From a virus (lineage: Duplodnaviria > Caudoviricetes), in the IMG/VR virus record IMGVR_UViG_3300021066_000083, positions 1-36,778 of that record: a stretch of DNA of 36,778 nt, one strand, 5' to 3'. Of the stretch, positions 4,111-29,000 are shown piece after piece. The notes below the pieces were generated by a model. The model worked only from the letters and a program-made list of their open reading frames with translations. It searched no databases and was not told where the DNA came from. The translations under genes were made by a program, and so were the position numbers. The first letter of the stretch is position 1, and each line of letters begins with the position of its first letter.

Positions 4111-7100
4111 TGGCTCCGAAGATTGCCCTCGCCTCCAGCCAGAACCTCGACGTCACCTCTTTCAATGCCGGCGAGATCGGCAAGGAAATCCAGGGACGCA
4201 CCTCGCTGGAGCGCTACGCGGCGACTGCCGACATCCTGGAGAATATGTGGCCCCTGCCGGAAGGGCCAATGACCTTGCGTCCGGGCTTTGGCTTCTATTC
4301 CGAGTTCGAGAGCCTGACGCGACTGCGCCGCTGGGTGTTTTCGCTCGACCAAAAGCACTTGATGGCGTTTTCCGACAATGAGCTGCGCATCGTTCAGGAT
4401 GGCGGCGTGCTGGCCCGTCCCGCGGTTTCCTCGACCGTCACCAACGGCGCCTTTGCGGCGCTCACCGGGTGGACAAACATCTCGGCCGGCGGCGGCAGCG
4501 CTGCCGCGTCCTCCGGCTTCCTGACGCTGGCTTCCGACGGCACCTCGATTGCCGGGGTGCGGCAGCAGGTTTCGACGTCCAACGCCGGCACCCTGCATGC
4601 CCTGCGCGTCGTCGTTGCGCGCGGACCCGTCAAGCTCAAGGTCGGCTCGGCGTCGGGCGGCGATCAGTACATCACCACCACCGAGCTGCGCACCGGCACG
4701 CACTCGCTGGCCTTTACCCCGACGGGTTCCTACTGGATCGAAATCTGGTCGAGCCTGAAGCGCACCATCCTCGTCGATAGCGCCACCATCGAGGCGGCCG
4801 GCGACCTCGTGCTGCCGACGCCGTGGCTGGCCGCCGACTACAATACCCTGCGCTTCGAGCAGTCGCGCGACGTGCTCTACGTCTCCTATGGAACCGGCGT
4901 CAAGAAGCGCATCGAGCGGCGCGCCGCCAACTCCTGGTCGATCACCGACTCGGACGAAAAAGACGGACCGTTCCTCGAAGCCAACGTCGATGAATCGATC
5001 TCGATTACCCCGTCGGTCACCTCCGGTAATGGCACCCTCACCGCCTCGGTTGGCGTCTTTCAGGCGGGCCACGTCGGGGCGCTGTGGAAGCTGACCCACG
5101 CCGGGCAGCTGGTCTCTCGCGCCGTCACCGCCGAAAACCAGTTCTCCGACCCGGTGCGCGTCACCGGCGTCGGCGCGGCCTCGCGCACCGTTACCGTCAA
5201 CATCACCGGCAGCTGGTCGGACATCACCGTCACGGTGCAGAAATCGATCGGCAACCCCGGCGACTGGTCGGACGTCTCCTCCTACACCGCCAATCAGTCG
5301 AGCGTCACCATCGTCGACGGCTCCGACAACGAGATCGTCTACTACCGCATCGGCGTCAAGACCGGCAACTATCCGGCCGGCGTCGCCGTCTCCAATGCCG
5401 TCAATAACGGCTCCGGCCTCATTCGTCTCACCGTCACCTCGACCACCGGCTGGTCGACCGGCGAAGCCAAGCTCATCTCCGGCGTCGGTGGCGTCACCAA
5501 CGCCAACGGCACGTTCACCATCACCGTCATCAATGCCACGACCATCGATCTGCAGGCCTCGACCTTTGCCGGCACCTACACCTCGGGCGGCTCGGTCGGT
5601 CCCGGAATTCCGACCGTGCAGCTGTCCTACGGCGGCGGCTCGACCGACGGCATCGCTCGCATCACCGGCTACACCTCGCCGACGCTGGTCGACATCGAGG
5701 TGCTTTCCCAGTTCGCCGCCGCGACGGCGACCAGCTTCTGGTCGGAAGGTTCGTGGAGCGATGTGCGCGGCTGGCCGAAGGGCATTGGCCTGTTCGACGG
5801 CCGCCTGTGGAACGGCTACGCCGATGAGTTCTGGGGCTCGCAGTCCGACCTCTATGAAAGCCAAGCCATCGGCGATGAGGACGATGACGCCATCAACCGG
5901 CTGATCGCCACCGGCAACGTCGCGCAAATCCAGGCCATCCTGCCGCTGCGCCGGCTGATCATGCTCACTGACTCGGGCGAGGTGGTGGTCAAGGCGTCCG
6001 ACTACGACGAGGCCCTGACCCCGGCCAACAACTCGGTGCGCGACGTTGCCTCCTTCGGCGCTGCCGACCTTGCGCCATACAAGCTCGACAACAAGGGCAT
6101 CTACGTCGACCGCTCCAGCATCCACGTCATGGAGCTGAGCTACTCGGTCGATGCCCAGGACTATGTGGCGAGCCCCTTGACGCGCCTGCACAAGAACATC
6201 GGCCGCCCGGGGCTCACCAAGATCGCCTTCTCGCGTCGCCCCGAGACGCGCATGTGGGCAACACGTTCCGATGGGCAGCTGGTGGTCAAGCTCTACGAGC
6301 CGGGCGAGAACGTGCTCGGCTGGGCGCGCGCCAAGACGGCACTCGGCGACAAGATGATCGACGTCGAGGTCCTGCCCGGGGCGGCCGGCGAGGGCGAGGA
6401 CGAGGTGTGGGCGATGTTCCAGCGGCGTCTCACCGACGGCTTCCACTACTACCTGGAGAAGCTCGGGCCGTTCTACTACGAGACGCTGGCCGACGCCTCC
6501 TGCCTCGACAGCTTCGTGCGCGTCGATGGGCCGGAGTGCGAGGCGGTCACCTTCTCCGGCAGTACCTACCTGGAGCGCGGCGCCGATCTCACCGGCGTCG
6601 CCAACGGCAAGGCGGGGCTCGTCTCCTTCTGGACGAAGTTCGCCTCGGACAGCGACGACGTCGAGCAGACCCTCTATGCCTCGACCGGCGAATACCTGCA
6701 CATCCGCCGCACCTCCGGCAACAAGTGGCGCATCTCCGGCAAGAACGCCGCCGGCGCCGTCATTCTCGACATGACCTCGGCCTCGGAGTGGACGGCGGAC
6801 AGCGGCTGGCACCACGTGCTTATCGCCTGGGACTTGGCGACGGGCGCCGGCCGCCTGCGCATCAACGGGGTAGACGACCGCGCCGCCGCGCCAACGCTGA
6901 CCAACGACACGCTCGACTATACGCGCGTCAACCATCATCTGGGCGTCAAGTCGGACGCTACCTTGAAGCTCAACGCCGACATCGCCCAGCTGTACGTCAA
7001 TCTGGCGGCGACCCTCGACATCTCGACCGCCGCCAACCAAGCCAAGTTCCGCTCCGCCTCCGGCTGGCCGGTGCAGCTGGGAACAAGCGGGGCAACGCCG

Positions 7101-8847: not shown

Positions 8848-11088
8848 ATGGCCAAGATTCCGACCGCGGAAGCGCTCGACCAGCCCAACGTCTCGGCGGT
8901 GCCGGTGACGACGCGCGTCCCGAGCTACGACGACAGCGCCTTTACCGCCAGCAATCGCGTCGATGCGCAGAATGCCAAGGCGCTCGGCAACCTCGGCGAT
9001 GGCGTCGAGGACTTCGGCCTCGCCCTGCAGAAGCGGCAGGACGAGGAAGACGAGTATGAGATGCAGAAGCGCTTTGTCGATTTCGACGTGCAACAGGAAA
9101 AGCGTCTGATCGACATGCAGAACAACCCCGGCAAGGAAGCCAAGGGGTTCACCTCATCGTTTGTCGACGGTTACAACCGCGACGGCCGCGAGTTCTTTAA
9201 GTCGGTGCCGTCGCGCCTCAAGGCCAAGTACGACGAGGCGCTGGTGCGCCGCCGTGGCGGCTATGAAAGCCGCGCCTATCGCTACGAGATCGGCGAGCGC
9301 GACCGTCAGCATCGCGAGGACCTCGACACCAAGCTGCTCGATCTCAGGAACGTCACTGCCGTCAACCCCGATGCCTACCGGGAGAACGTGGCGCGCGGGG
9401 TTTCGATCATCTCCGCATCGCGCCTGCCCCCGGCCGACAAGGACAAGGCGATGAAATCCTTTGCGCAGGGCGTCGAGGAGGACGCCGTGCGTGCCCGCAT
9501 CGACCGCGGCGACGACATTTCGCAGATCATCAGGGACCTGAAGGCGCGTCCCGGCACGGTGGCGCCGGAGAAGGCCGAGGTCGAGGGCCTGCTGGTGCCG
9601 GGCAACATCGATTTGGCCGCCCGCAAGATCGTGCACAACCCCGACGGCAGTATTTCGACCCTGAAGTCGATGAGCTTTAAGGACGGCAAAACGGAAGTTC
9701 TGATTCCGACCCTCGATCCGCAGGGCCAGCCGCTCAGCGACGAACAAGCCATCGCCCTCTACAAGGCGACCGGCCAGCATCTGGGGCAGTTCAAGGACGC
9801 CGACACGGCGACGCGCTTTGCCAAGCAGCTCTCCGAGGACATGGAGGCAGCGGCGCTCGGCGAGCCAAGCGAGGCCGACAAGGTCGTCTACCGGCACCTG
9901 AAGCCCGACCAGCGACTGAGGCTGATCAACGTGGCGCGCGTCGCCGGGCGCGGCGAAGCCGTGTCGCGCATTGAAGACGACATTGAGAAAATCCGCGACG
10001 GTATTGATGTGGACATCGTCGACGGCAAGACGAGCCTGGAGCGCGGCGGCGAGTTCCTCACCGACATGCAGCGCGAGCGCTACAGCCGCCGCTGGAACGC
10101 CGCCATCATCGAGAACGCCGCCAAGGCGCCGCTCGCCAACATGAGCAACGACGAGGGCGACGAGCACCTCGGCAACATTCTCGACAAGGCCGAGCAGAGC
10201 AGCGAGGAGGGCTATAAGCTCACCCAGGACGCGCTGCGCGCCGCCAATCCTTACTGGGAGAAGATCAAAAAGCTACGCGACGACGACCCGGCGCGCGCCG
10301 TGTTCGGCTCGCCCGAGGTGCAGGCAGCGGTGCAGACGGCCAAGGCCAAGCGTCTTGCCCCCAACATGAGCGGCGGCGGCGTCGGCACGGCGATCGACGC
10401 CGGCTGGGCGGTGCCGCCGCAGCAGGCGCAGGAGCTGGTGATCGCGGCGCGGCTTGCCGCCCAGAAGCGGCTCGGCATCCGGCTGATGGCGATCACCAAG
10501 CGGGAAGCCGTCGCCCTGATGAACATGCCGCCCGACGACGGCAAGATGACCGATCGTGAATTTGCCGATCACCTGAAGGCCGCCGAGCAACGCGCCCTGG
10601 AAATCTATGGCCCGAAGTACGCAGGCCTCGCCTTCGAGGCCGGCGTCTCGACCCTCGCCAAGCAAGATCGGCGTGACACGGGCTATGGAATCGCTCGAAA
10701 GATCATCGCCGGGGAGCCGATCGGCGAGTTTGACCTCACCCAGCTGCGCGCCATGGCGCGTGTCTCGGGCGGGGACAGGCTGTTCTATCCGGTAGAGGCC
10801 CCTGAGATCGCCCGGGGAGGGATGCGCGATCTCCCCGAGATGCCGGCGCTGCCCGCACCCGGCTTCAACGACGCCAAGCGCGGGGCATCGCCGCCCGGAT
10901 TCAGCCCGGCAACGGCTTACCCGGAACCGACGCCGGAGGACATCGAGCGGTTGCGTCAGAAGCCGTCACGTTACCAGGAGTTCGAGCGCACCTACGGCCC
11001 CGGCGCGGCGGCTCGCGCTCTCAGCACCAAGCCGGCGTCAACGCAGTCCGCGTCCCAGTCGAAATCCAAGTCTGCGAAGGACCGTTGA
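8848..11088 (+). CDS. Internal virion (ejection) protein, T7 gp15-like, 746 aa
   Basis: MAKIPT start, mostly helical, inserted GNIDL...HLGQF domain at ~9590-9840; synteny between the gp14-like and giant genes. Confidence 0.72.
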   Translation: MAKIPTAEALDQPNVSAVPVTTRVPSYDDSAFTASNRVDAQNAKALGNLGDGVEDFGLALQKRQDEEDEYEMQKRFVDFDVQQEKRLIDMQNNPGKEAKGFTSSFVDGYNRDGREFFKSVPSRLKAKYDEALVRRRGGYESRAYRYEIGERDRQHREDLDTKLLDLRNVTAVNPDAYRENVARGVSIISASRLPPADKDKAMKSFAQGVEEDAVRARIDRGDDISQIIRDLKARPGTVAPEKAEVEGLLVPGNIDLAARKIVHNPDGSISTLKSMSFKDGKTEVLIPTLDPQGQPLSDEQAIALYKATGQHLGQFKDADTATRFAKQLSEDMEAAALGEPSEADKVVYRHLKPDQRLRLINVARVAGRGEAVSRIEDDIEKIRDGIDVDIVDGKTSLERGGEFLTDMQRERYSRRWNAAIIENAAKAPLANMSNDEGDEHLGNILDKAEQSSEEGYKLTQDALRAANPYWEKIKKLRDDDPARAVFGSPEVQAAVQTAKAKRLAPNMSGGGVGTAIDAGWAVPPQQAQELVIAARLAAQKRLGIRLMAITKREAVALMNMPPDDGKMTDREFADHLKAAEQRALEIYGPKYAGLAFEAGVSTLAKQDRRDTGYGIARKIIAGEPIGEFDLTQLRAMARVSGGDRLFYPVEAPEIARGGMRDLPEMPALPAPGFNDAKRGASPPGFSPATAYPEPTPEDIERLRQKPSRYQEFERTYGPGAAARALSTKPASTQSASQSKSKSAKDR

Positions 11089-14000
11089 TGGCCGAGAACG
11101 ACGATCTCGACATCCCGTTTGGCCAGCACCTTGACCAGCCGGAGGGCTCGCGCGAGCTGGTCCCGGTTGTCAAGCCGACGCTGCGCGAAACGCAATCGCC
11201 GGTCGAGATCGACCCCGATCCGAATATCGGCGGCCTGCAGATCGAGCGCCGCGTCAATAAACGTCGCGAGCAGGATGACGCCACCGACCGCTCATTCCTC
11301 GATACCTTCGGCCGCTGGGGCTACCTGGAGCCGGAGGAAAAGGACCAGTGGGCGGCTGATACCGAGGCGTATGCCAAGGAGGCGCAGGGCTACTGGGGGT
11401 CGATCAGCTCGATCGCCAAGCGCACCAAGGCGGCAACCGGCTACGACCGGGTTTCCGGCCCGCTGCCCGGGATCGGCGGTGCCGGGCTCGGCCTGCTCGA
11501 TTTTGCCGAGCGCAAGGGCGCCGAAATGCAGGCGTTCTACCAGCGGCGCGAGTTGCTGGCCAAGGCGGTGGCCGAGGGTCGCGCGGCGCTGCCCAAGTAT
11601 TCGCTGGCCCGCAACATTGTCGAGGAGACGCTGAAGGCCGGCGGCGACACGGCCGGCTCCGCCATCAAGGGCTGGGGACGTGGCGCCGGCTATGCGGCCG
11701 ATGCCAGCTATGGGATGACCAGCGAGGAGGAGCGCCGCCAGCAGCGGGCCCGCATGTCGTTCGCCGGCGGCATGATTGCCCCGGAAAAGGCGCCGACCTA
11801 CGCGCAGGAGATCGTCAAGGCCGCCGGCTACGCCTTCGAGCGCGATACCGGCTCGGCGGAAAAGGCGGCCGAGTTCGTGCACCGCCTGTCGGGCAAGACG
11901 CTGGAGCACTTCGGCGGTTTCATTTCCGAGAAGGCGAAAGAGCTGTTCCCCGGCGACGAGGCGCGGCAGGAGGAGTTCGCCACCAAGTTCGCCGCCGGCA
12001 CCGGCTCGATGATCACCTTCTGGGGCACCGGGCTCACCGCGTACTTTCTGACGCGCGCCGGGCCGAAGACGCTGATCCGCACCGCCGACGAGACGGGCGG
12101 CAAGTGGGCGTCCGAGTTCGCCCCCGAGTACATGAGCAAGGAGCTGGCGCAGAAGACGGCCAAGAATCAGGCAGCCGCCGTCTCTGGCGCCACCGGCGCC
12201 ATGATGCAGGGCGAAAGCGCCGCGCAGGAGGCCGAGTTCTACCGCGACGAGCTGGGGCGGTCGGTGTCGCAGCGCGACATCATGATGACCTACCTCTTGA
12301 ACCTGCCGGGCGGCGCCTCGGAAGCCTTGCCCATCGCCAAGCTGTTCGCCAATCCGACCGGCTCGGCGATCAAGAACGTGATCGAGCAGGCGATCGAGGA
12401 GGGCGGGCAGGAGTTCGGCCAGCAGGTCCTGCAGAACCTCATCGCCCAGCAGTATTACGATCCCTCGCGCACCTGGGATGACGGAGCCTGGGAAGGCGCC
12501 GCCATCGGCCTGATGCTCGGCGCCGGCATGGAAAGCGCCCGCGCCGCCTACGAAAAGGGCAAGGTGCAGCTCGGCACGCGCGAGCCGGCAACCACGGGCG
12601 CCGACGGGGAGACCGTCGAGGGCGCGCCGGAGACCGAGAAGGCTCCCAAGCCGGGCGAGACCCTCGACGGCACTGAACAACCTTCGTCTGACGCCGGTGG
12701 GGCAGCAAAGCCCGTCCGCGAGGCCAAGCTCGGCCGCAAGGGCGTCGTCACCGACGTCGAGCCGATCCCGGCCGGTCCCGAGGAGGACCAGCCGGTCGCC
12801 GCCATGACCCAGGGGGCGCCGCAGGGCGAGGACCTCGCCACCGACGCCGCCGACGCCGATCTCAACGAGGATTTTGCCAACCTGATGGGCGGGGCGGTCT
12901 CGGTCGAGGAGATTCGTGCATTCGGTGACGGAGGTGACGCAGTTTCGGTAACTGGCGTACCTGCTGACCAGGGGGGTGTAGAACCGAGCGAGAACCTCAC
13001 TGAAAACACTGGGCAAATAGCAGGTGTGGGCGCGGAACAGGGCGAGAACTCGCCCGAACTTGACGGACTCCGGGCCGAACTTGACGGCATGAAGCGCAAG
13101 GCGCAGCTGATCGCCCGTGCCGAGGCGGCCGGCATCGAGCTGCCCGACGAGGTGACCGATCAGCCGATCGAGACGCTACGCGGCTCGATCCTCAATGCGC
13201 TGGCCAACAAGGACACGGCCCGTAGACAAGTGCTCGCCGGCCGCTCGCCGATCGAGGACGTCTCCGAGGTGGTGACCCCCGACGGGTCGATGAAGCTCAA
13301 GGTGAAGACGGAGCTGGTCGAGCTGTCCGACCTGACGGCCCTCAAAAAGCAGTCGGACCTGCAGCCGCGCGACCGGACCACCAAGGAATCGGAAGCGCAG
13401 GTCAAGAACCGCGCCGCCAACATGGACGTGGCTCGCCTGATGCCGCGCCGCGTCTCCTCCGGCGGGGCCCCGATCGTCATGGCCGACGGCACGGTGCTTT
13501 CCGGCAACGGCCGGGTCCTGTCGCTGAATGAGGTCTACAACAATCCCGAGCTGAAGGCGAAGGCCGATGAGTATCGCGCCGCGCTGCCGCCGGAGGCCGC
13601 GGGCATGCGCGCCCCGGTGCTCATCACCCGCATTGTCGACGAGCCGGATCGCAAGCAGCTGGCCCGCTTCGCCGACCTCTCCAATCGTCCCGGCATGGGG
13701 CAGCTCTCGGCTTCCGAGAAGGGCCTGCGCGACGCCAAGATGGCGGGCGAGGCGATCATGGGCCTCTACCAGGGCGGCTCGTTCACCGCCCCGCAGAACC
13801 GCGACTTCTACCGCGCCTTCCTCGACAACGTCATCGTCGCTTCCGAACGTGGTTCTGTTTCACGTGAAGGGATGCTGACCAAGGAGGGCGAGGACCGCAT
13901 GTCGGCGGCGGTGCTCGCTGCCGCCTACGGCGACCCGCAGCTCCTGGTGCGCATGCTGGAATCGACCGATGATTCGATCCGCTCGGTGACCGGGGCGATG

Positions 14001-17000
14001 CGCGATGCCGCCGGCGCCGTGCTGCGTTTGAAGGCCGCCATCGCTTCCGGCGAGGCTTCCCCGCAGTTCGACATCACCCCGCAGATCGTCGAGGTGGCCA
14101 AGCGCATCGGCGATCTACGCGAGCGCGGCATCAAGCCGGCGGCGTTCCTCGCCCAGCTCGACGCCTTCACGCAGCTCGATCCGATCGTCGAGACCTTGCT
14201 GCGCGCCTTCTACAATGACAACCTCGCCCGCACCTTGTCGCGCGAGAAGTTGACGGAGGTCATCACCCGCTATGCCGACGAAGCCGCCAAGCACGCGGAA
14301 GGCGGGCTCATCCCCGACGAGACCCGCCCGCAAGACATCATCGTCCAGGCCCGCGAGAAAGCCCTCGTTGCCGAAAGGCTTGCCGCCCTCCAAGGCGACA
14401 TCTTCGAAAGCCGCGCAGGCGCTGCTGGCCGGGATACTGCAGGGGACGGGGGCGCGGCGGCAGGACAAGGCACTGCAGCTGGCGGGGCTCGACCTGGAAC
14501 AGAAATCGACGATGCCCTCAAAGGCGCCTTCGTCCAAATCCTCGCCGGAAAAGCCCCACGTGCGGACTGGGCGGCTCAACTCGGGGTCGACGAAAAAACG
14601 CTAGGCGCCCTGGAGAAGTGGGCGATCAGCGGCGGGCTTCTGCGCCAAGCCGCCAACGGACAGGTGCGCCGCACCGGCGCCGCCAAGCTGCAGGCGGCAA
14701 AGCCACAGGCGCAGCAGGACGTCGAGCAGGCGAACGACCAGCTGGCGGAGCGCGAGCGGGCCGCGCGCGCCTTCATGCAAACGCCGGAATGGCTCGGAGC
14801 GGCGGCCGAGGTCGGCGTCGACACGACCCAGCAGCCCGGCTACCTCACCGACGAATGGAAGGCCAATCGCCAGTACATGGCGGCCGACGGCTCGATCATC
14901 CGCGGCTACGAGGCGGTCATCGCTCATCAGTACGCCAAGGCCAAGTCCGAGGTGAAGGGCGGGCCGCGCTATGAGAAGAAAGCCTATATCGTCATCGGCC
15001 TGCCGGCCGCCGGCAAGTCGGGATTGTCGGAGCGCATCCGCGACATTCAGGGTGCGGTGATCGTCGACGGCGACGACTTCAAGCCGATGATCCCCGAGTA
15101 CGGCGGCGGCTGGAATTCTTCCGGCGTGCACGAGGAAGCCTCGAAGCTCTCCAAGGAGTTGCTCGCCGAGGCCTCGCTCGACGGCATCAACCTCATCGTT
15201 CCCAAGCTCGGCTCCTCGGACGCCTCGATCTCGCGCCCGGCCCAGGTGCTGCGCGATCACGGCTACACCGTGCACCTCATCTATGTCGACGTGCCGAAGG
15301 CCGTGGCCATGGAGCGCGCCATCAAGCGCTGGCGCTCGACTGGACGCACGGTGCCGCTGAGCATATATGACGAGCTACGCGCAGGAGAAGTCTATGGCTC
15401 CCTCAAAACCAACGGCGCGGTCGACGAAGCCGCCGTCATCCAATGGGTCGAGCCCAGTGGCTGGGCCGTCACCGATCACACCCAAAACCTCGCCGGACTC
15501 CGGGGAGCCATTTCCGGTGACAGCGCAGTGGGGCAGCCCCCTGTGGGCGGACCAAGTGTCGACGCGCGACCAGCTGGAAGGGCTGCACGAGGCGCTGGAG
15601 CGGCGCAAGAAGCTGCGCGAGCGCCAGAGCCCGTCAACCCCCGAGGAAACGGAGGCGTAAGCCTCGCCGTCTCCCCGGGCGAGCGCATCGAACGCGCCGC
15701 CCGCGGCCGCCGTATTGCCCCGGCGCTCATCGACTACGCGACGCGCCTCGACGCCGCGCTGGGCACGCCTGAGTTCGGCCCCATCCTGGCCGAGCTGAAA
15801 GCCGACAAGACTGTTAAGAAAGATGACGCGGTCGACGTCGCCGGGCTCATCCTCGGTACGACGCTGCCCCGCTCGACCACCAAGAAAGCGGCCTTCCAGT
15901 CGATCGAACGCCGCAACTGGAGCCACGTGCGCACGGCGCAGCGGCTGCCGCACATCGGCGACGTCTTCTCCGCCGTCCTGGAGCTGCCGGCCGGCGTGTG
16001 GGCGATCAAGTCGAGGTCCAACGAGTTCGCCCGCAACTTTGATGGCTCGGTGATCGCCTTCGCCACCAAGGCCGAGGCCGAGGCCTACAACAACCGGCGC
16101 GGGTCGCAGCTCGACGACGCCCACGAAATGATCGAGTCGCTGTTCGACGACATGACCATGTACTCGGCGGTGCTGGGCGCTCCGCGGCGCCGCTACTACC
16201 ACGGCTCCAAGGCGGCCGGCGTCACCCAGCTCGATGCCGCGCGCGCCGGCTCCAACACGCCCTCGCCCAATACGGTGCTTGGCGCCTTCCTCACCTCCGA
16301 CAAGGGCTTTGCCACGGCCTACGGCCCGAACGTGACGCCGTTCGACGTCGACCTTGCCAATCCGCTCACCATCACCGCCCCGAAGGGCTATCCGCCCGAT
16401 CCGACGGCGGCGATCGACGACGTCGTCGCGCGCGCGCTGGGCAAGCCGATCAACAAGCTGACGCGCGAAGACTTCGCCAGCTGGCGCGACGGTCTCATCA
16501 CCAAGGGCCACGACGGCATCTTAGTCGAGAACCCGCACAAGGGCATCGACAATGTCGTCGTGTTCGACGCGAAGAAGGCTAAGCCGGCAACGCCGACGCT
16601 GGCATCGATGGTGGGCGAGCAGGCTGCCGCCTATCCGCCCGGCGTCCAGACCTTTGGGCCGCCTCCGTTCGACCCGGGCGAGCTTCAAAAGGTCGCCGGC
16701 AGCAAGAACGGAGTCAGCCTGTTGCGCGGCACCAAGAGCTACTACTTCCCCCACGAGCGGTTCTACTGGATGATGCTCGAAGGGCAGGCGGAGCCCGTCG
16801 GCTACATCGGCATGAACCGCGAGGGCCGCGACGACGGCGACGCCCAGGAGAACAAGCCCTACGCGCAGCGCCAGGGCGGGCGGTGGATGGTCGACGCCGT
16901 CGAGGTCAACAAGGATTTCCGCGGCAAGGGGCTGGCGCAGAGCGCTTATGACCTCGTCGAGAAGGACCTCGGCATCAAGCTAGCCCCGTCCGACGCGCTC

Positions 17001-20000
17001 AGCGACGACGGCTATAAGCTATGGAAAAAGCGCGATCCGGCGGCGATTGCCGGCTATCAGAAGCTCTCCGGCATGTGGGTTCCCGCTACGACGTTTGCGG
17101 AGCGCGTTGCTGCCGGCAAGACGATCCGCGCCTTCCACGGCATGTCGGGCGCACTGGAGGGCGGGCGCTTCGACGTCGACCGCGCCGGGCAGAACTTCGG
17201 CGATGACGCCGGCATCTTCTTCACCACCGACCCGCGCGAGGCCGGCACCTGGGGGGAAAGCGCCGATTTCATCCCCGAGCGCGGCGCGGCGGTTGTTCCG
17301 GCCGACGTCACCTTCCACAATCCGTTGCGCGTCTCGGCGGCCGGGCACGCCAACGGCCCCGCCGACTACTGGTGGAACCACAAGAGCTATTTGCTGCCGC
17401 AGGCGCACAAGGGCGGCCACGACGGCGTCATCGTCACCGGCAACCCGGGCACAGGCGCCATGCTGGTGGCGCTCTCCCCCAACACCGTGCGCTCGCCGCT
17501 GGTGCCGGACCTCACCTTGTTCTCGATGATGGGGCCCTCGCCGGCCGAGCTGGCGGGGACAAGCCCCCTTGCAAATCCGCGTTCCGATACCGATCCTGAG
17601 CTGGTCGCACTCCTGAAGGAGGCCCTGGGCGATGACTTTATTGCCGCACGAGAAGACGACGGCGGCGCTGGCGCTGCTGGCGAAGATCGAGCAGCTGCCG
17701 AAGGGCGATCCGCTGCGCCGGCAGATGCTGGTCAAGGCGGCCAGCTTGATGGGTCCGCCGCCTCCAAAAAGCGCCCCGTCCCCGAGCGGGTCCGCTTCCG
17801 CGCCTTCGACAAAGTCCTCGGCGGCAAGTACGCGCCGGAAAAAGTAAAGGCGCGCGCCAAGGCGCAGGGCTTCACCGTCGAGGGCTGGCACGGCACCCGG
17901 GCGCCGCAGATCGACGTGCCGCGCGTCGCCCCCACCTATGAGCAGGGCGATAGCAGCGACTTCGGTTTCCACGTCGCCATCGGCCGCCCCAACGCGGCCA
18001 ATCGGATTGTCGGCGTCAAGCCCGGGCTGTTCAGCAAATTCTTGAGCGCCCTGCAAGGCGACTCGGCGACCGCGAACGAGCAGCTTTACGGCGGCATGGG
18101 ACCGGCCAACATCCTGCCGGTGCGCCTCAACGCCCACAAGCCTTATCGCATGGTAGACATCGGCCGCTGGGATACGGCTTTCCAGTGGGAAGCGGCGTTG
18201 GGCGACGCCCGCTTCGCCAACACCAAGCTCGGCAAGCAGCCGGGCACCAAGAAGATTTTTGCCGTCGTGCTGGAACACGTCGAGCGCTACAACAAGCGGG
18301 TCGGCCGCAATACGGCATCGTTCGATGGCGAGGATTTTGTTGCGGTCAACGAAAACGGCGCATGGGTCAAAAAGCCGAAGACTAAAGCTCAGCAGCAGGT
18401 ATCCGTCTCCGATCTAAACCGCGAGTTCCAGCGCGACCTCGTGGCCGCGCTGGAGGCCGAGGGCTACGACTCGGTGATCTACGCCAACGACATCGAGGAC
18501 GCCGGCAAGGACAGTATGTTCGTGTGGGATGCCGCGCGCGTGCGCTCCGCCTACGATATGTTCGATGAGCGCGCCATCGGCAAGCCGGGCACGCTCGCCT
18601 CCAAGGAATTTGTCGACCAGGACATCCGCGACGCCTTGAACGCCATCGCCCTGGAGGAAGGGCTCTCGGGCGAGACGCTGTTCTCGTTTATCGGCGACCA
18701 GGGCGCCAAGGCGCTGGCGCTGGCCGATCGTCCGGCGGCGCAGGAAGCCATTGCGCTGGCCGAACAGCTGGAGGCCGACGGCGCCGATCGGGACGGCATC
18801 TGGGATGCCACGGTCGAGCTGCTCGCTGCCAAGGACCCGGAGCTGATCGGCGCCTTCCGCGGCGCCGACGGGATGTGGCGGGTCGAGGCAGCGGATACCG
18901 GCTTCGGACTGACGCCCCGGGCTGTCGGCATGATGAACGACCAGTGGGACGTCAAGAGCCTAGGCAGGTTCAATAAGACATTCGGTTACATGCCGGCGCC
19001 GCTCGGCAATTTCATCAGCCACCCGACCGTCTTCGCCGCCTATCCGAAGCTGGCGGCGCGCACCGCCTATCTCGGAACTGTCGACCCGGAGTCCCCGACT
19101 GACGGCGGGGGCGCGCAAGAGGTTGGCGCCGACATTGAAAAGTACGACTACGGCATCGAATTGCTGGCCCGCAGCGTGGCGCAGCTCAATTCGTTCAACG
19201 CCCACGAAATACAGCACCTCATCCAGTTCATTGAGGGCTTTGCCTCCGGTGGTAACACGCGCACGGCGCCGGCGGCCTTCCAGCGGCAGATCACCGACGT
19301 CATGCTCGGCGGCGAGGCGACCGACCCGCGCTTCCCGCATGACCTCATCGACTTCAATGATCTGCTCGCCTCGTTGCGCGAACTCAAGGCCGATGGCGTC
19401 GACGTGCGTCAGCACCCATTCGCCAAAGGGGCGAGCACCATCCTCTTTCAACTCTATCAGCGCCTTGCTGGCGAGGTCGAGGCCCGCAACGTTCAGGCGC
19501 GCCTCGCCATGACAGTCGAGGAGCGCCGCGCCGTGCCGCCGTGGCATACCGAGGACACGCCGCAGGCGCAGCAGATACCGATCACTCAGGATGAGCGTCT
19601 CGGCCATGCCGCCCGCCAGATCGCCGGCGTCTCCTCGTGGGACAGCGAGGCGATGCAGGAAGCCGCCGCCAAGCTGCGCTGGTTCACCCTCGGCAAGGCG
19701 GTGACCGCGTGGTTCACCCTGGGGCTGCCGCCGCGTGAGGCCACTGTTTCCAATGTGGAAAACGTGGTTGACCGCGCCGTCGAGCCGCAGTTTACCGACC
19801 CGGCTCCCGCCAACGATACAGCTCCGGCGCTTAACGACAACGACCGCGTGCTCTTGCGCCTCCTGCCGGCGCTGGAATCCGACCCGCTGCGCATCGCTCC
19901 GGTCTCGCAGGAGCTGGCGCGGCAGCTGGAGGCGGAGATCAAGAAGGCGCTGCCGCCGGAGATCGGCGTGCGCGTCGTCGACCGGCTGCGCATCGCCGGG

Positions 20001-23000
20001 CATAGCGCGCTCGGCGCCAGCAACGCCGGGCAGCGCATCCTCGCCGTCTCCCTGGCGCAGGGCATCGGCGTCGCCCGTGAGACCGCCCGCCACGAGATCA
20101 TTCATATGGCGCGCGAGCTGCACCTCTTTACCGAGGTCGAGTGGCAGGCGCTGGTCAATGAGGCGAAGCGCCAGCTGGTCGCCCAGCAGATCACCATGCG
20201 CTTGGCCGACGGGCAGATCGTCGCCGACATGGACGCCTATCGCACGGCATACCGGGCACAGCTTGAGGGGCTTGGCTACGCTGGGGCGCCGCTGGAAGCC
20301 CGTCTGCAGGAAATGCTCGACCAGGAGCTGGTCGCCAAGCTGGCGGAGACCTTTATCGACGGGGCCCGCACCGGCACGCCGCTCGATCAGCTCTTGGAGC
20401 GCCTGTCGCGCTTTTTCGAGGCGGTGCTCAATGCGTGGCGCGGGGCGGGGCTCATTTCCCCGCGCGATGTGCTGAGCAAGACGTTCTCCGGCGAGCTGGC
20501 GCAGCGCGCCGCCGCGGAAGCCCGCGCCAAGGAAGCCGAGCTGCTGCCGCCCGGCCTGCAGGAGCTGCTCGACGACGTGCGCTTGTCGGGGCGCGGCATG
20601 CCCTTCCCGGTCACCGCCCGCGGCGACTTCGTGGCCGCGTCGATGGTCGGCTATCACGGCTCCTCGGCCGACTTCGAGGGGTTCGAGTGGGAGAAGATCG
20701 GCGGCGGCGAAGGCTCGACCTCCTATTTCACGCCCGGCATCCACTACTTCGCCTACGGCCACAACTTCGCCTCGGCGCCCAACGTGGCGCGCGAGTATCA
20801 TCGCACCTTCGGCCGCGTCGTCTATGACGGCCGGGCCCACGATCCCAATAACCCGGCGCACCGCGCCGCCGACCTCCTGCTGCAGTACAATAATGATCGC
20901 GAGGCGGCGATCCAAGCCGCGATCGACGAGGCGGCTTATCAGGACCAGCAGCGGGCGCAGGCGCCGTTCCTCGACCGGGCGTCGCGCTCCTGGCACGGCG
21001 AGCGGGCCCGTCTTGCCCGGGAGGCCGAGGCGAAGCTGCGCCATAACGCCGAAGCCAAGCTCAGCAAGACGGGCGGCGTCTATGAGGCGCGCCTTGACGT
21101 CGACGCCGAGGCCTTGCTCGATCTCGATACGCCGCTCGCCCGGCAGAGCCCGCGCATCCAAAGCTTCGCCAAGGAGGTCATCGACGGGGCGATGAAGCGC
21201 CTCGAAGCCCACGGCCACAAGCAGACCTTGGAGGCGATCAAGGACGGCACCGTCAACGGCTTCCATTTGATCCGCATCATGGGCGGGCCGATCGAGGCCG
21301 TCTCCAAGCAGCTCGACGCCGCCGGCATCAAGGGCGTGCGCTATGCCGACCAGTATTCGGAGGCCGCGCCCGGCACCCCCAACTATGTGGTGTTTGACGA
21401 CAAGCTGATCACCATCACCGCCAAGAACGGCAAGCCGGTGCCCGAGGCGGCGCGGCAGCGGGCGATCGACGGCGGCTCGGTGCCGCTCGGGCCCGGCGAT
21501 GTCACCTTCGCCTCCTACGTCGCCTATCACGGGACGCCCAACGACTGGACGCCGGAGCGGCGCGTGCGTCTCGCTGACGGCAAGGAAATCTACGTGGGGC
21601 TCGCCGAGCCGCTGCCGCCCGACGCCACCGTCATCAAGGAATACCCGGCGGGGCGCGTCGACCTGTCCAAGATCGGCACCGGCGAGGGCGCTCAGGCCTA
21701 TGGCCCGGGGTTCTATGCGGCCGATAAGCTGGGCGTCGCCAAGAGCTATTACGACACCCTGTCGAAGCGCAAGCGCGTGCGCCGCGCCATCGTCCGCCTC
21801 GACGGGGAGACCAGCGGCGAATACGCCGACAAGCGGCTGGAGAAGATGCAGGCGCAGCTTGGCAAGCTGCCGCCTTATGATGCGGCCGAGCACCAGCGCT
21901 GGCATACCATCGCGGCGGAGATGGCGTTCCTCTCTGCCGACCGTGCCATTGCGCAACCCCACTACTCCTTGGTGCCGGCCGTCAAGCGGGCAATGGCGCG
22001 CGGCGGCGGCCCGAAAGCCTACTACCCCGAGGCGCTGAAGGGTATGGTGCCGGTCGACAGCCGACAGCCGCTGGCGGTGCAAGCGGCCGCCTATCTCGAC
22101 GGCTACAGTCATCTGCCGAACGCGCGCGCGGCGGCGCTTATCAACCAGCGCGAGCAGATCAACGCCGCGGTCAGTGCCCTGACGCCGCTCGGCTTCAGCC
22201 GCGAGGACAAGATCGAACGCGCCGCCATCCAGGCTCGCATTGAGCGCAACCGCCAGCTCATCCAGATTATCGAAGCTGGCGGCGAGGCGAAGGGCATCCC
22301 GGCAACCGAGATCATCGCCAAGCTCACCGAATTCGAGAAGGCGCGCGACCTCACCGAGGCCATTGCGGCGCACGAAGCCGGCGACAACCCGCCCGACCTG
22401 CGCTTCGACAACGCCACCTTGCGCGAGTCCGGTATCGCCATGCTGGAGGAGTACGAGAGCGCCGACGCGTTCATCCGCGAGCACGGCTACTACGACAAGC
22501 ATTCGGTTCACGCCCTCGCCGCCGAGGAAGTGCGGCAGTTGGCGCGTGACAACCGCCTCACCTGGGAGCCGCTGCCCGACTCTAAGAGCGGCGGCCTCTA
22601 CAAGCTCGACATCAAGGTCGACGACAGCCAAATCCTCGATTGGGACCTGAAGATCAGCCAGCAGCACCCGAAGGTGCAGGCGGCGCTGAAGCAGGCGAAT
22701 ATCGTCTCTCCGGCCTCCGGCAACTGGCTGCAGCGCATCCTCAATGCCGGGCGCGACGACACCCCGCCCGCCGCCAAGGTGATCCGCGACAAGCAGGCGA
22801 TGAACCCGGCCGGGTTGCGCAAGGCGCTGGCCGACAACGGCATCAAGGTCATTCGCTATCTCGACGGCACCTCGCGCGCCAAGGGCGCTGGCTCCTACAA
22901 TTACGTGGTGCTCGATGAGGAGGTTGTCGACGTCGTCGCCAAGAACGGCGAGGTCGTGGGCGACGATTTCCGCAAGGGGCTGATGCAGAAGGCGAGGGAG

Positions 23001-26000
23001 AGCGCGCTCGCCGCCTCGCCGATGGGCGCCGCCTTCCTCGCTCAGGTGACCGCCGAAAACCCGGGGGCCTCCCCGTTCGATTGGGTGCAGGGCGCTATTC
23101 AACGCGCCAATCTGGAGGCCGACCGCTACGAGCGTGGCACGCCCGCCCACCAGGACGCCATCGGGGCGCTCGCCTCCTTGCGCCGGGTCGAGGCAACCTA
23201 CCTGTCGGGCGTGCTGGAGATGGGTGGCGAACCGCGTTTGCGGCGCGCCGAGGCGCAAGGCTTTGACACGAGCACGGTGTACTACCACGGGACCGGCGCC
23301 AAGTTCGATCGTTTCAACCCGGCGAAACAGCACCGCAACTCGGACGCCGAATATAGCGCCGTGTTCGTCACCGAGGACCCGAAGTTCGCCGACCTATTCG
23401 CCGAGGCGGCCTATGCGCCGTCGCCGCAGACGGGCGTGCCGCGCACTCTCGCCCTTTATGTGCGCACGCCGCAGCGCGCCGATCTCACCTCGGAGGCCGA
23501 CCTCAATCGTATTGCCGCAGCCTTGGCCGCGCGCCTAAGCGTTGCCCGAGAGCGTGAGACGAGCGTTGAGGACGCGCGTCAACAGCTCGTCCAACATATC
23601 GCCGATGGCCGCCTCGAATGGGCGTATGGCTTTGGCGTTGCCGCCGCGCAGGACGCCGGCTTTGATGCCGTGCCGCTGCACGATTCCTATGGCCCCTCGC
23701 TGGCCATCTTCGACCCGAGCAACATCCGCTCCGTCGACGCCGAGTTCGCCGACGGCACGGAAAACAGCGACCTGCTGATGGCCTCCGCCGTGCTCGACGA
23801 GCAGACCCTGAAGGGCCTCGACGGGCTCGCCGCCAAGATCGAGACCGGCACGCCATCGTCGCGGGCGGCGACCAAGTCGGGAACGAAGCCGGGTGACGTC
23901 AAAGCCTTGGGCGATCTCATCGCCGACATCAAGGACGCCATCGGCATGACGGCGACCCAGGGCCGCTACGGCTTCACGGTCACCGACCGCACCGCCGGCC
24001 CCGAGCAGAACCGCCCCCCGCGCTCCTGGCGCTTCCGCCCGCAGTCCAACCTGCGCGGCCAGTATGACATGCGCGCCGGCGTCGCCCGCTATCGCCTCGC
24101 CACCGACATTGAAGCCATTGCCCACGAAGGTGGCCATCACTTGGAGCGCCTGTTCGGCGGCGACCTGCGACAGGTGACCGACGCGCACCGGCGCGAGCTG
24201 CTCGACTACGCGGCGCGCGGGGCGATTCCCGCCGCCCCCGATCGCCCCGTCCCGGCCATGCCGGAGACCGGCTACTCTGGCCTCGATCTCGACGCCGACG
24301 CCCAGCGCATCCTCGTCGAGGCTTCGAGCGCGTGGTCGACTCTGTCGGCCGCCCAGACGCTGCCGGCGGGCAGCCCCGTCCACCAGATCGCCACCAACAA
24401 GTTCGGCCGCTACTCGGAGGAGCTGGCGCACCGGGTGGGGGCGCAAATCGCCGAGGCCTTGATCCAGGAGGTCGCCTCCAAGACGCTGCCCAATACGCGC
24501 ATCGACTACGTGCGCCAGCGCTTCTCGGCCACCGGCACGCCGCGCCCGGCACCCAAGGACCTGCGCACCTCGATGTCGGAGGGCTTCGCCGAGTTCTTCC
24601 GCGAGTACGTCACCGATCCGAACCGGGCGGCGCGCTTCGCCCCCGGCTTCTATCAGGCGTTCGAAGATTTCCTCGACGTCGAGGGCCCGCAACTCCTCGA
24701 AAAGATCGAGCGGTTGCAGATCGTCACCACCGCCAAGGAATATGAGCAGTATCTGCAGGCGACCACAGTCGACCGCGGCGTCGCCGATCTCGTCACCAAC
24801 GCCGACTACCGCTGGTCGGCCAAGTGGAAAGCGTTGAAAGAGACGCTAGCCGACATGGGGCAGGCAGAGACCATCTCCGGCAAGGCGGCGGAAATCTACG
24901 CCGGCGCCGTCGACGAGGTGCACCCCTGGTATGTGGCGGTCAAGAACCTGCTGCTGCAGCGCGACGAGAACGACGCCGACGTGCATAAGCGCGCCGTCGC
25001 CAATGCTCAGAAGCTGGGGCTGCCGATCCCGGAGACGCCGCGTGCCGCCTCGCTCGCCGTGCACGAGAACCCCTACAAGCTGATCCGCGCCATCGGCGAC
25101 AGCTTCAAGACGGGGCTGCGGTGGATTCAGGACGGCATGCCGCACTATCGCCGCGCCGACGGGCCGCGCTCCGCCTCGTTGTGGGATGCGCTCAATCTGG
25201 TGATGAGCGGCAAGTGGGACAACGACGCCTATCAGAAGTTCGGCGTCTACCTGGAATCGCGCCGCGCCGTCGAGGAGTGGAAGCTGTGGGAGGCCAAGCG
25301 CGTCGAGATGGCCAATCTCGATCGGCGCATCGCTACGGCGCGCGGTCAGCTTTCCGCCCTGCGCGAACAGCGCCGCAAGGCCGAGGCCATGCTGGAGCGG
25401 CGCAGCAAAGCGACCACCGGCAACGAAGCGGTGGCCCGCGAGCTTGACCGGCAGCTGCAGAAGCTGATCACCCAGGAGGCTGGTCTCGTTCTCGCCCTGC
25501 AGGAGGGGCAGGTGGCGACGCCGGGCATGCAGGACGGGCAGGTGGTCCGCGTGCACGCCCAGCTGGCCGACGTCCGCCGCCAGCTCAATGCCCTGGAAGC
25601 GCGCCGCGGCGACGTACTGACCCGGGCGCTGGGCGTCGAGGGCGACGCGGCGACGCTCTCCGATCAGGTCGACCGCCTCAACGAGGCAATCCTCAAGCGC
25701 GAGTCGGCGATCGAGCAGGCGAGCGAGCGCCGCGACGAGCTGCACAATAACGGCCTGCAGCGCGCCCCGCACCGCGTCTCCCAGGCCGAGCACGAGGCAC
25801 GCATCGCCGCGCTCGAAACCGAGAATGGCAACTTCGGGCAAGCGGCCGAGCACGTCTACGCCTTCCTCTGGGCAACGGCGGTGCACGATTTCGAGGCAGG
25901 GCGCCTGACGCAGGCAGAGCTGGACTACCGCAAGACGCGGCGCCATTTCTACGTGCCCTTTGCCCGCGACCTGTCCGACATCATCGAGGAGCGCGGCTTC

Positions 26001-29000
26001 GGTGGGCGCTCGACCACCCGCCGCTTCCAGAAGGACAAGGCCTTCGCCGGCTCCGATCGCGCTATCGTCAATCCGATCGAGACGATCATCGATCAGATGT
26101 TCCACCGCGCCGCAGCAACCCACTTCAACGACACGGTGAAGGCGCTGGCGACGCTGGCCGACAACACCGGCCCGGGCGGCAACGCCATCGCCGAGCGGGT
26201 CGAGAAGTCGGCGCTGCTCGCCGCCAACGCCGACGGCTTCGCCAAGCTCGAAGGCCACCTCATGTCGCTCGGCTACAGCCAAGAGGACGCGCGCGAGATG
26301 GTGAAGCGCGTCGAGAGCGACTTCGGCGACACGCAGCTGCTGCTCACCTGGGCCCCGGAGAACATGGGCGCCAAGCGGCCGCTGCTGCTGCCGCTGTGGG
26401 AGAACGGCGAGCGCAAGTTCGTGCGCATCAATGACCCCGAGTTCGCCAAGGCGGTGCATGAATCGGTGAACGGCATCGGCCGCGAAATGAGCGGGCTGAT
26501 CATGGATTGGGCGGCGGCGCCGGCGACGTGGCTGCGCCTCGGCATCACCACCAACCCGACGTTCGTCATCCCCAACATCATCCGCGATATGTTCGCCGCC
26601 TTCCAGATCACCGGCTCGATCATGGACCCGCGCACGTGGCCGGTGATTACCCAGGCGCGCGGCCTCTACCACGAGCTGCGACAGACCGATATGGCCCGCC
26701 TCTATCAGGAGGTCGCCGGCATCATGGGCGGGCAGAACGTCGCCGCCTTGTCGAAGGTGCGCGATAAGATGGACGTCATGCAGCTGCAGGACCGCGGCCT
26801 GCGCATCAAGCCGATGCGCCTGCTGATCGCCGGCGGCATCGGCGCCACCGCCGGCTTCGCCCTGGCGGGTCCGGCCGGTTCGCTGTTCGGCGCCTTCCTC
26901 GGTGCCGGCCTGCACCGCGCCGGCAAGTCGGGCACCAACTTCTGGGAAACGATGGCGCTGTTCTCCGATATGTCGGAAACGGCAACGCGGCTTGGCGTGT
27001 TCACCACCGCCTTCGATGCGGCCAAGAGCTACAACCCGCAGCTCACCAAATTCCAGGCGGCGCAGGAGGCCGCCTACGTCGCCCGCGACCTTATCGACTT
27101 CGGCCGCCGCGGCTCCAAGATGCTCGCCGCTTCCCGCCTCGTGCCGTTCCTCAATGCCAACATCCAGGGCCTCGACAAGACGGTGCGCACGCTGGCGACG
27201 GCGCGCTCGGATCGCGGCGCTTCCCTGTCGCCCACCAAGATGGCGGCTGCGGTTGCCGCCGGCGCCGGCGTCGGCATGGCTGCTGGGCCGATCGGCGCCG
27301 CCGTCGGTGCCGTGGTCGGGCCCGCCGTCGCCGCTCAGTTCGCCTCCCGCTCGGAAAAGGTGCGCCGCCTCTTGGCGCCGTTCTATAAGCGCAACTCGGG
27401 CTTGAAGCTCAGCCGCGACGAGGAGCGGGCGCTCGCCGATTCGGCCAAGGCATGGATGAACCTGCTGCTCTATACCGCCTTCCTGCTGTCCTTCCGCTGG
27501 CTCTACGACGACGATGATGAGTACAAGATGATCGAGCCGAAGCTGAAGTACCGCGCCCAGCCGGTGAAGGTCGGCGACGAGTGGGGCGGCATCCCCAAGG
27601 CCTTCGAGTGGTCGATCCCGGCGACGATCATCGAGGCGGCGATCGACGCGCAGCTCGACAGCGACCCACGTTTGAAAGAGCGCATCATCGGGGCGCTGTA
27701 CGAGAACGCCGTGCCGCCGCTGCCGATCCCGCAAGGCTTCACCCTGTGGTCGGACATCCGCTCTAATTTCGACGCCCGCCGCGGCCGCCCCATCGTCCCC
27801 TCGTTCATGCAGAACCGCCCGCCACAGGAGCAGTACAACGCCTATTCGTCCAAGTTCGCCATGTGGCTCGCCCGGCAGATCAACGAGAACGCCGCCCTCA
27901 AGGCGGGCGTCGAAGCGCAGGGCCGCAAGCTGTTCGGCGTCGACCGCTTCCAGGTCTCGCCGCTGCTCATCGACTACGCCATTTCCACCGGCGGCGGCTA
28001 CTGGGGCAAGGATGTGCAGAAGCTCTCCAACTTCGCCGGCGAGGTAGGCCCACGCTCGGGGCGGGTCACCGAGTGGCCAATCATCGGCACGCTGCTGCAG
28101 CGCCTGTCGATCGATCCCTACCGGGCGAACGACGCCAAGGAGGGCTACTGGAAGCGCATGGCCCAGTTCGGCGGCACCTTCATGGTGGCGGCCGGCGGCT
28201 ATGATTCGATCCTCAAGGACCGCAGCCAGGAGGCAGCCAACCAGTTCCTGGCGACGCTCCCCGAGGAGGAGCGCGCCTTCGCCCTGGTCATGGCCCAGGA
28301 GGACACGAAAAAGCGCCGCCTGCACCCGTTCAAGCGCATGGCCGACGTCTACGACGCCACCAAGGACATCAGCCAGGAGATCATCGCCGGCCGCCTGGAG
28401 GATACTTCGGTCAAGAGCGATCCGAAGCGGATCGTCCTCGCCCCCGACAAGGCCTTCGAGGTCCTTAACGCCCTGGAGCAGCTGCAGGGCATCGAGATGA
28501 CCAACACCATGATCGCCTTGAAGATCGATCAGTTCGCCGCGCGCAAGCCGCTCGATACCGCCCCGGCGCTGGCGCTGTTGCAAGCCGCCTCGCCCGCCGT
28601 GGCTGCCGAGTTGCAGGAACGCTACAAACGCAAGCACGTGGTCGACTACGCCGACGCCGTCAAGGAGTGGCCGCTCATCAAAGACGAGCTTATGGAGGAG
28701 TGGGAGGCGAGCATGGCCGGCGGCAACGCCGCCCTGCCCAACGCCAAGCCGCGCAAGATGCGCCTCGGCGGGCCACCAGCCGATCCGCGCGGCAAATGGG
28801 AGGACAGCGGCACCACGCGCCGGGCCCCGGGCGCGGATTCGCAGGACTGGGTCGATCGCCTCCCGGCCATCACCGGAGGACGTGACCGGCCGTCACCCAT
28901 GCCGGTGCTGCCTGGACAAGTGACTCGCGACGACGATGCCGGCGGCGTCTACCACCCGGATGTGATGCTAGATCAGCAGGGCCAGCCGACCGACGAGTTC

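Follow-up and report, generated by a model that had tools for sequence, protein, structure and literature searches.

The window, which is the whole stretch of DNA analysed here, has 36,778 nucleotides and comes from a virus record that is 69% complete. Its genes follow the order major head protein, tail proteins, two internal virion proteins, a 746-aa gene, a 5972-aa gene and tail fibre. According to Pfam, the 5972-aa gene carries a ddrB-like ParB domain, a zeta-like kinase, two ART-PolyVal domains, a GNAT domain and LPD38. By PHROGs, its place is between the two internal-virion-protein genes and the tail fibre gene. This gene order suggests that the product is an ejection protein, packaged and injected. 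It combines unrelated enzyme domains with an LPD domain and sits among virion genes (Pfam, PHROGs), as the polyvalent proteins described in the main text of PMC5512222 (Iyer et al. 2017) do, and it is one of them. Zeta-toxin-like kinases of polyvalent and MuF-fused proteins are mentioned in that text, with cell-wall weakening suggested as their effect. The words "overlap" and "linker" are absent from its main text, and no nested partner was found in the part available. The nearest named relative of the window kinase is from a Hyphomicrobiaceae MAG. On this ground, the host is presumably alphaproteobacterial. The features of the locus are the following.

11085 to 29003, plus strand: polyvalent host gene, 5972 aa, 17.9 kb (open reading frame list, Pfam, PHROGs).
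14817 to 15491, plus strand: zeta-fold P-loop kinase domain, about amino acids 1245-1470 of 5972 (Pfam, model, residue map).
15340 to 15368, plus strand: predicted sigma70 promoter CTGGAC-N17-ATATAT (sequence; activity only predicted).
15383 to 15387, plus strand: Shine-Dalgarno (SD) sequence AGGAG (sequence; GGAG at the same place in the related locus L005).
15394 to 15660, plus strand: ORF B, 88 codons, in the +1 frame of 11085-29003, from ATG 15394 to TAA 15658-15660.
15502 to 15519, plus strand: possible second start, GGGGAG 15502-15507 with GTG 15517, giving a 47-aa product (sequence).
15529 to 15627, plus strand: conserved part of ORF B, with the motif W46-G-S-P-L-W51 and a predicted helix (relatives, AlphaFold model).

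A sequence-only reading of this DNA had described a promoter-like site, an SD sequence, ATG 15394 and an 88-codon +1 ORF at the end of the kinase domain. All of them are present at these coordinates.

The kinase domain matches Zeta_toxin (PF06414, E 1e-19) and its model has a pLDDT of 94. The best fold match is zeta (1gvn_B; Z 19.6, rmsd 2.4 over 196 residues), with the N-terminal part included. It is followed by PezT (Z 18.5), AvrRxo1 (15.8) and polynucleotide kinase (15.3), and the best 8 Foldseek matches are all zeta/PezT. In sequence, the neighbours are zeta (E 5.4e-11) and Pnkp1 (E 1.2e-9). The N-terminal extension is matched by the zeta fold and is absent from the polynucleotide kinase matches. 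The domain had earlier been delimited as 14940-15480. The folded domain begins near 14817, and the shorter span loses the N-terminal helices aligned with zeta. The Walker A lysine is at 15015, the catalytic aspartate at 15072 and the lid arginines at 15327 and 15345. These residues are invariant in all 49 kinases of the set described below, the equivalent of zeta Asp67 being mapped via an HMM alignment to 1gvn. That the P-E-Y and V-H-E-E motifs are invariant too follows largely from the search pattern.

The substrate pocket of this kinase family differs from that of zeta. As described in the text available of PMC3062530, zeta binds UDP-GlcNAc via Thr118, Arg120, Glu100 and Thr128, and a change of threonine to valine at the site equivalent to Thr118 makes PezT non-toxic. 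In the 49 kinases, the Thr118 column consists of valine (38), leucine (5), isoleucine (4) and threonine (2). The Arg120 column presents serine, aspartate, histidine, glycine or lysine, and the Glu100 column is mixed, not glutamate as a rule. The window kinase has lysine, leucine and serine at the Glu100, Thr118 and Arg120 columns, all mapped by sequence profile and not by superposed coordinates. At these three columns, the earlier expectation that this kinase phosphorylates UDP-GlcNAc as zeta and PezT do finds no support. The enzyme looks catalytically active, probably on another acceptor, and its substrate is probably other than UDP-GlcNAc as bound by zeta. With these contacts lost, the kinase may also lack toxicity, in which case it would have no need of an antitoxin.

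ORF B begins over the last helices of the kinase. Its conserved part overlies a main-frame linker rich in glycine, alanine, arginine and proline. The +1 frame of the host gene holds 12 units with an SD, a start and an ORF of at least 40 aa. Only 3 of them show a positive codon signal, and ORF B is the strongest. Its 40-codon +1 score is +38.7, compared with a host-gene median of -52 (sd 16.7), and the second half of ORF B gives the strongest +1 codon signal within the 17.9-kb gene. Likewise, the GC3 of residues 42-88 is 0.89 in the +1 frame versus 0.51 in the main frame. The -35 box, the -10 box and the SD are spelled with main-frame codons of 1-5% usage (ACT, GGA, ATA, GCA, GGA), the SD AGGAG being made of the rare codons GCA GGA. 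The window-only synonymous-shuffle p is 0.043. By themselves, this p, the promoter match and the presence of an SD-start-ORF unit are modest signals; it is the codon use that sets ORF B apart.

The N-half of ORF B is rich in serine and threonine, and residues 36-66 have a net charge of -4. The C-half had been read as a helix, and the AlphaFold model agrees: it predicts a single helix, at residues 49-78, preceded by an unstructured stretch. At E 0.01 Pfam gives no match to ORF B, PHROGs assigns it to no family, and its best match in the ESM Atlas (0.79) is below lead level. No homologue was found for the 47-aa form among predicted proteins of 25-83 aa, nor for ORF B alignment A3 among those of 24-154 aa. 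This is expected because gene callers skip such genes.

The predicted promoter consists of a -35 box CTGGAC (15340-15345), a 17-nt spacer and a -10 box ATATAT (15363-15368). It matches the Sinorhizobium meliloti sigma70 consensus CTTGAC-N17-CTATAT, as given in the text available of PMC2873474, at 10 of 12 positions. The window contains two such sites, versus 0.43 expected, and 6 of 100 shuffles reach two. By itself, this match is modest evidence. The synonymous-shuffle p of the window promoter is 0.02. A scan of the window for E. coli-type promoters did not pick up 15340-15368. The second match to the alphaproteobacterial consensus is at 5332-5360 on the minus strand, antisense in a tail gene.

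Two other +1 segments with coding signal follow other domains of the host gene. One of them, at 17632-17847 (plus strand, 71 aa), comes directly after an ART-like segment. It has the SD AAGGAGG, a TTGCAA hexamer upstream and the second-best +1 codon score, with no PHROG match. The other, at 14272-14604 (plus strand, 110 aa), follows the ParB region and has its coding signal around 14406-14510. The only plus-strand site of the E. coli-type promoter scan (14188-14216) is upstream of its ATG. Nesting is therefore not peculiar to the kinase. The host gene also presents a GC3 dip at 12900-13050 with stops in both other plus-strand frames, perhaps a decayed nested gene or a regulatory stretch. As a nested +1 gene it was rejected, since it has no open +1 frame.

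We searched for the same arrangement in relatives. Among the best 150 of 3725 matches (E 0.001) of a protein-representative search, the closest kinase homologues mostly keep the main-frame linker motif able to encode tryptophan in the +1 frame. A profile search gave five foreign loci at 38-46% identity. All five present an SD, an ATG, a +1 ORF ending in the linker and a tryptophan motif around the W-G-S-P-L-W region of the window. L005 carries CTGGAC-N17-CTATAT (11 of 12 consensus positions), GGAG and an ATG, all at the codons where the window has them. In the other four, the start is 10-12 codons further on, each with its own promoter-like site. A single-protein scan of viral contigs found nothing, and in GenBank phages the only matches were 8 halovirus records, 33-35% identical.

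These comparisons also bear on the start codon. The earlier preference for 15394 over the in-frame ATG 15367 holds because L005 has the same cassette at the same codon; ATG 15367 was rejected since it overlaps the -10 box. GTG 15517, with GGGGAG 9 nt upstream, was considered as the main start but ranked second once a cassette of the 15394 type was seen in L005. The relatives showed neither a promoter-like site nor a start to match it. The spacing between the -10 box and the ATG is mostly 20-26 nt in the family, and the 24 nt of the window fits. A 72%-identical protein (P0005) is compatible only with a start at codon +17.

A pattern scan added 119 loci. With these, 124 of 126 loci match the kinase profile and form 75 clusters at 70% identity. 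After 26 clusters with a short flank or no anchor were dropped, 49 were kept: 40 with the kinase fused and 9 with it terminal. Our strict rule asked for an SD-ATG and a +1 ORF of at least 40 aa starting at codons +15 to +35 past the G-R anchor. It holds in 33 of the 40 fused loci (32 of 39 without the window), which share descent, so that the counts are not independent events. Synonymous shuffles give 3.93 as the expected number; the rule holds for 0 of 40 in the +2 frame and for 29 of 1436 positions elsewhere in these genes. The prediction of a +1 ORF at the same position in other phage zeta-like domains is borne out in this set. A relaxed rule, set post hoc, covers 40 of 40 fused loci versus 64 of 965 controls, with a median length of 62.5 aa. 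The promoter score, calculated with our own weights, is above the shuffle mean in 26 of the 33 loci and reaches p<0.05 in 12.

The ATG is kept while the main-frame residue that carries it varies (D, Y, N or H). The start has moved between codon +17 and codons +27 to +31, with promoter and SD moving along. On the other hand, the nested peptides are highly divergent, with a mean column identity of 16%. The most acidic 15-mer of 41 nested peptides has a median charge of -4 and contains an aromatic residue in 33 of them. ORF B of the window has no significant BLAST match to the peptides of the other clusters, which leaves its position and a short motif as the basis for placing it in the family.

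An independent second scan gave 70 loci, 66 of them kinases, and 14 new clusters (1 without an anchor, 2 kinase-terminal and 11 fused). The strict rule holds in 4 of the 11 fused clusters versus 1.08 expected, and in 7 of 11 without the SD requirement. The remaining four are AT-rich and alike, with GGAG and TTG starts further downstream, by a post hoc reading. L173, L157, L194 and L128 are AT-rich kinases without the V-H-E-E motif, and their nested ORF begins later, at a TTG after GGAG. The pocket change is accompanied there by the moved start.

We estimated selection in both frames from 15 pairs of 5 clusters (8 examined), all outside the clade of the window, with uncorrected Nei-Gojobori pN/pS. 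Two DNA sequencing runs, one of which may be the source of the window, yielded no usable variants. The C-half of the ORF has a pN/pS of 0.31 in +1 against 1.24 in the main frame. Over the kinase core the relation is the opposite (main 0.14, +1 1.37), and it is so again downstream (main 0.21, +1 1.36). Both frames are constrained over the N-half (0.27 and 0.64), where main-frame synonymous change halves. The flip over the C-half means that the "linker" is selected as a small protein. A conserved start, SD, open frame and +1 purifying selection, the last measured in other clades, are the marks of an overprinted gene. We regard it as almost certain that ORF B is a real gene.

The small gene is repeatedly and tightly linked to the kinase gene, in the 33 of 40 fused loci and also where the locus has been rearranged. 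In L035, the kinase is the C-terminal end of a portal protein (PHROGs). There, a free 57-aa gene on the opposite strand abuts the stop of the kinase gene, as the last of a convergent run of small ORFs. Along 34 aa, its product is 47% identical to the peptide nested in L033 (E 2e-7, BLAST against 5906 segments), and the L035 and L033 kinases are sisters (SH-aLRT 88, quick tree). Such a free homologue, encoded on the other strand, speaks for a product that acts in trans rather than for a cis effect on translation. In L062 and L163, the +1 gene is kept across the kinase stop. In L039, of the L081 cluster, a weaker homologue (E 0.006) of the L029 peptide opens the next gene. The peptide-like segment forms there the N-terminus of the next long ORF (L039:1919-3043, plus strand), as if the polyprotein had been split by a shift of frame where the nested gene ends. 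By position or homology, the peptide is seen in only these 4 of 11 kinase-terminal loci. Three others have an unrelated-looking gene alongside (L084, with 61 aa, L069 and L182). In L050, L083, L012 and L060 the next ORFs have 229-396 aa, with no homologue detected.

Compared with the type II systems epsilon/zeta and PezAT (1gvn, 3q8x, 2p5t), the locus has in common the kinase fold (Z 19.6 and 18.5), the Walker A lysine, the catalytic aspartate, the lid arginine and a small helical partner gene. Here, however, the partner gene has a predicted promoter of its own and lies downstream and out of frame, within the gene for the kinase. Pfam recognises no family in ORF B, and the residues with which zeta contacts UDP-GlcNAc are not kept. 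No epsilon- or PezA-family antitoxin in a bicistronic operon was found; the DNA upstream of the kinase belongs to the same giant ORF. Given the different substrate contacts and antitoxin type, this is not a member of the epsilon/zeta family. In its working, the locus likely resembles a toxin-immunity pair, judging by sequence. The MuF/portal-linked polymorphic toxins of phages with downstream immunity ORFs, as presented in the main text of PMC5576092, share an enzyme domain associated with the virion and, directly behind it, a short and divergent ORF. L035, with its portal-fused C-terminal kinase, is such a case. In those systems the toxin is C-terminal and the small ORF separate, whereas in the window the kinase domain lies within the protein and ORF B overprints the linker. 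Pfam finds no MuF domain in the window, and the word "zeta" is absent from the main text of PMC5576092.

Rhs toxins made from internal promoters as type II modules, as described in the text available of PMC7043789, also have a promoter inside a large toxin-delivery ORF. Their promoter yields an in-frame toxin, with a separate immunity gene downstream, whereas the one predicted here would yield only the out-of-frame peptide. Overlapping alternate-frame insertion (OAFI), in the available text of bioRxiv 10.1101/2024.11.07.622342, is engineered and its inner gene is the toxin, whereas the present overlap is natural and its inner gene is a likely inhibitor of the adjacent domain. Among the titles and abstracts searched, with most subscription journals and supplements outside this scope, none reported a nested partner of a phage zeta-like kinase.

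We hold it as fairly probable that ORF B is the cognate inhibitor, antitoxin or immunity peptide, of the zeta-fold kinase. The sequence-only reading had taken it for the antitoxin. Its promoter-SD-ORF unit is real, and independent support comes from the rearranged loci, which keep the peptide beside the kinase; the zeta/PezT-type substrate UDP-GlcNAc is not supported. The host-type promoter and ribosome site predicted inside the last helices of the kinase would allow the peptide to be made apart from the late giant gene. The acidic, aromatic motif and the helix of ORF B would bind the kinase, probably at its basic nucleotide site. The bound peptide could silence the kinase during synthesis and packaging of the polyprotein, or in the lysogen. 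The polyprotein would then be injected into a new cell without the peptide, and the kinase would be active until the incoming DNA expresses ORF B. With the inhibitor overprinted on the linker, a toxin-immunity cassette could sit in the middle of a polyprotein. We infer in this way the expression of ORF B, its binding and inhibition, the injection, the timing and any toxicity of the kinase.

A real partner could also have another role than protection. The kinase would then be non-toxic, for example one that phosphorylates a nucleotide or RNA end against host defence, and ORF B would serve it as substrate, activator, adaptor or folding chaperone. The same linkage and selection would be explained, and the lost UDP-GlcNAc contacts agree with it. 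Polynucleotide kinases are close in sequence (Pnkp1, E 1.2e-9) and also in fold (Z 15.3), although the zeta match covers the N-terminal extension and theirs do not. The serine and threonine of the N-half would suit such a role, but richness in serine, threonine and proline is expected in the +1 frame of a GC3-rich gene. Moreover, the own host-type promoter and the opposite-strand copy of L035 indicate separate control, which suits protection better than a cofactor. We consider this role unlikely.

We judge it quite improbable that ORF B is a phage gene unrelated to the kinase, with a job such as superinfection exclusion or inhibition of a host protein, riding in the linker and inherited with the cassette. 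Linkers after other domains hold +1 genes too (14272-14604, 17632-17847), shared descent alone makes peptide similarity track the kinase clades, and 4 of 11 kinase-terminal loci show no small partner. Against it, the L035 copy left the linker, switched strand and still abuts the kinase gene, and the cassette has not been lost but set up again at different codons. That ORF B has no function as a protein, and is only a side product of codon bias and of what the linker is made of, or else a translation signal acting in cis, is very hard to maintain. Open +1 frames with SD-like starts are common (12 in the host gene), the window-only shuffle p is just 0.043 and predicted proteins include no homologue. 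Against this stand the 33 loci versus 3.9 expected, the frame flip in pN/pS, the +1 GC3 of 0.89 and the free-standing homologue on the opposite strand.

The cognate-inhibitor reading matters because an enzyme domain that sits within a polyprotein leaves no room for the usual immunity gene downstream of it. A partner gene overprinted on the linker, with its own promoter, is a candidate answer to how the producer cell survives. A broader proposal is possible but tentative, and we place it below even chance: giant injected polyproteins would be strings of toxin-immunity cassettes, with the inhibitor of each effector overprinted on the following linker. The kinases would have a new substrate, and a peptide made from a host promoter would protect the producer and time the kinase after injection. 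If this is true, many "orphan" zeta-like kinases and "floppy linkers" are mis-annotated pairs. The locus bears on the "orphan" PezT/zeta homologues, whose antitoxins were sought among upstream genes in the part available of a review (PMC10532202), and gene callers miss nested genes of this kind. Among the matches listed, four proteins (P0004, P0017, P0037 and P0082) carry two copies of the zeta-like kinase each.
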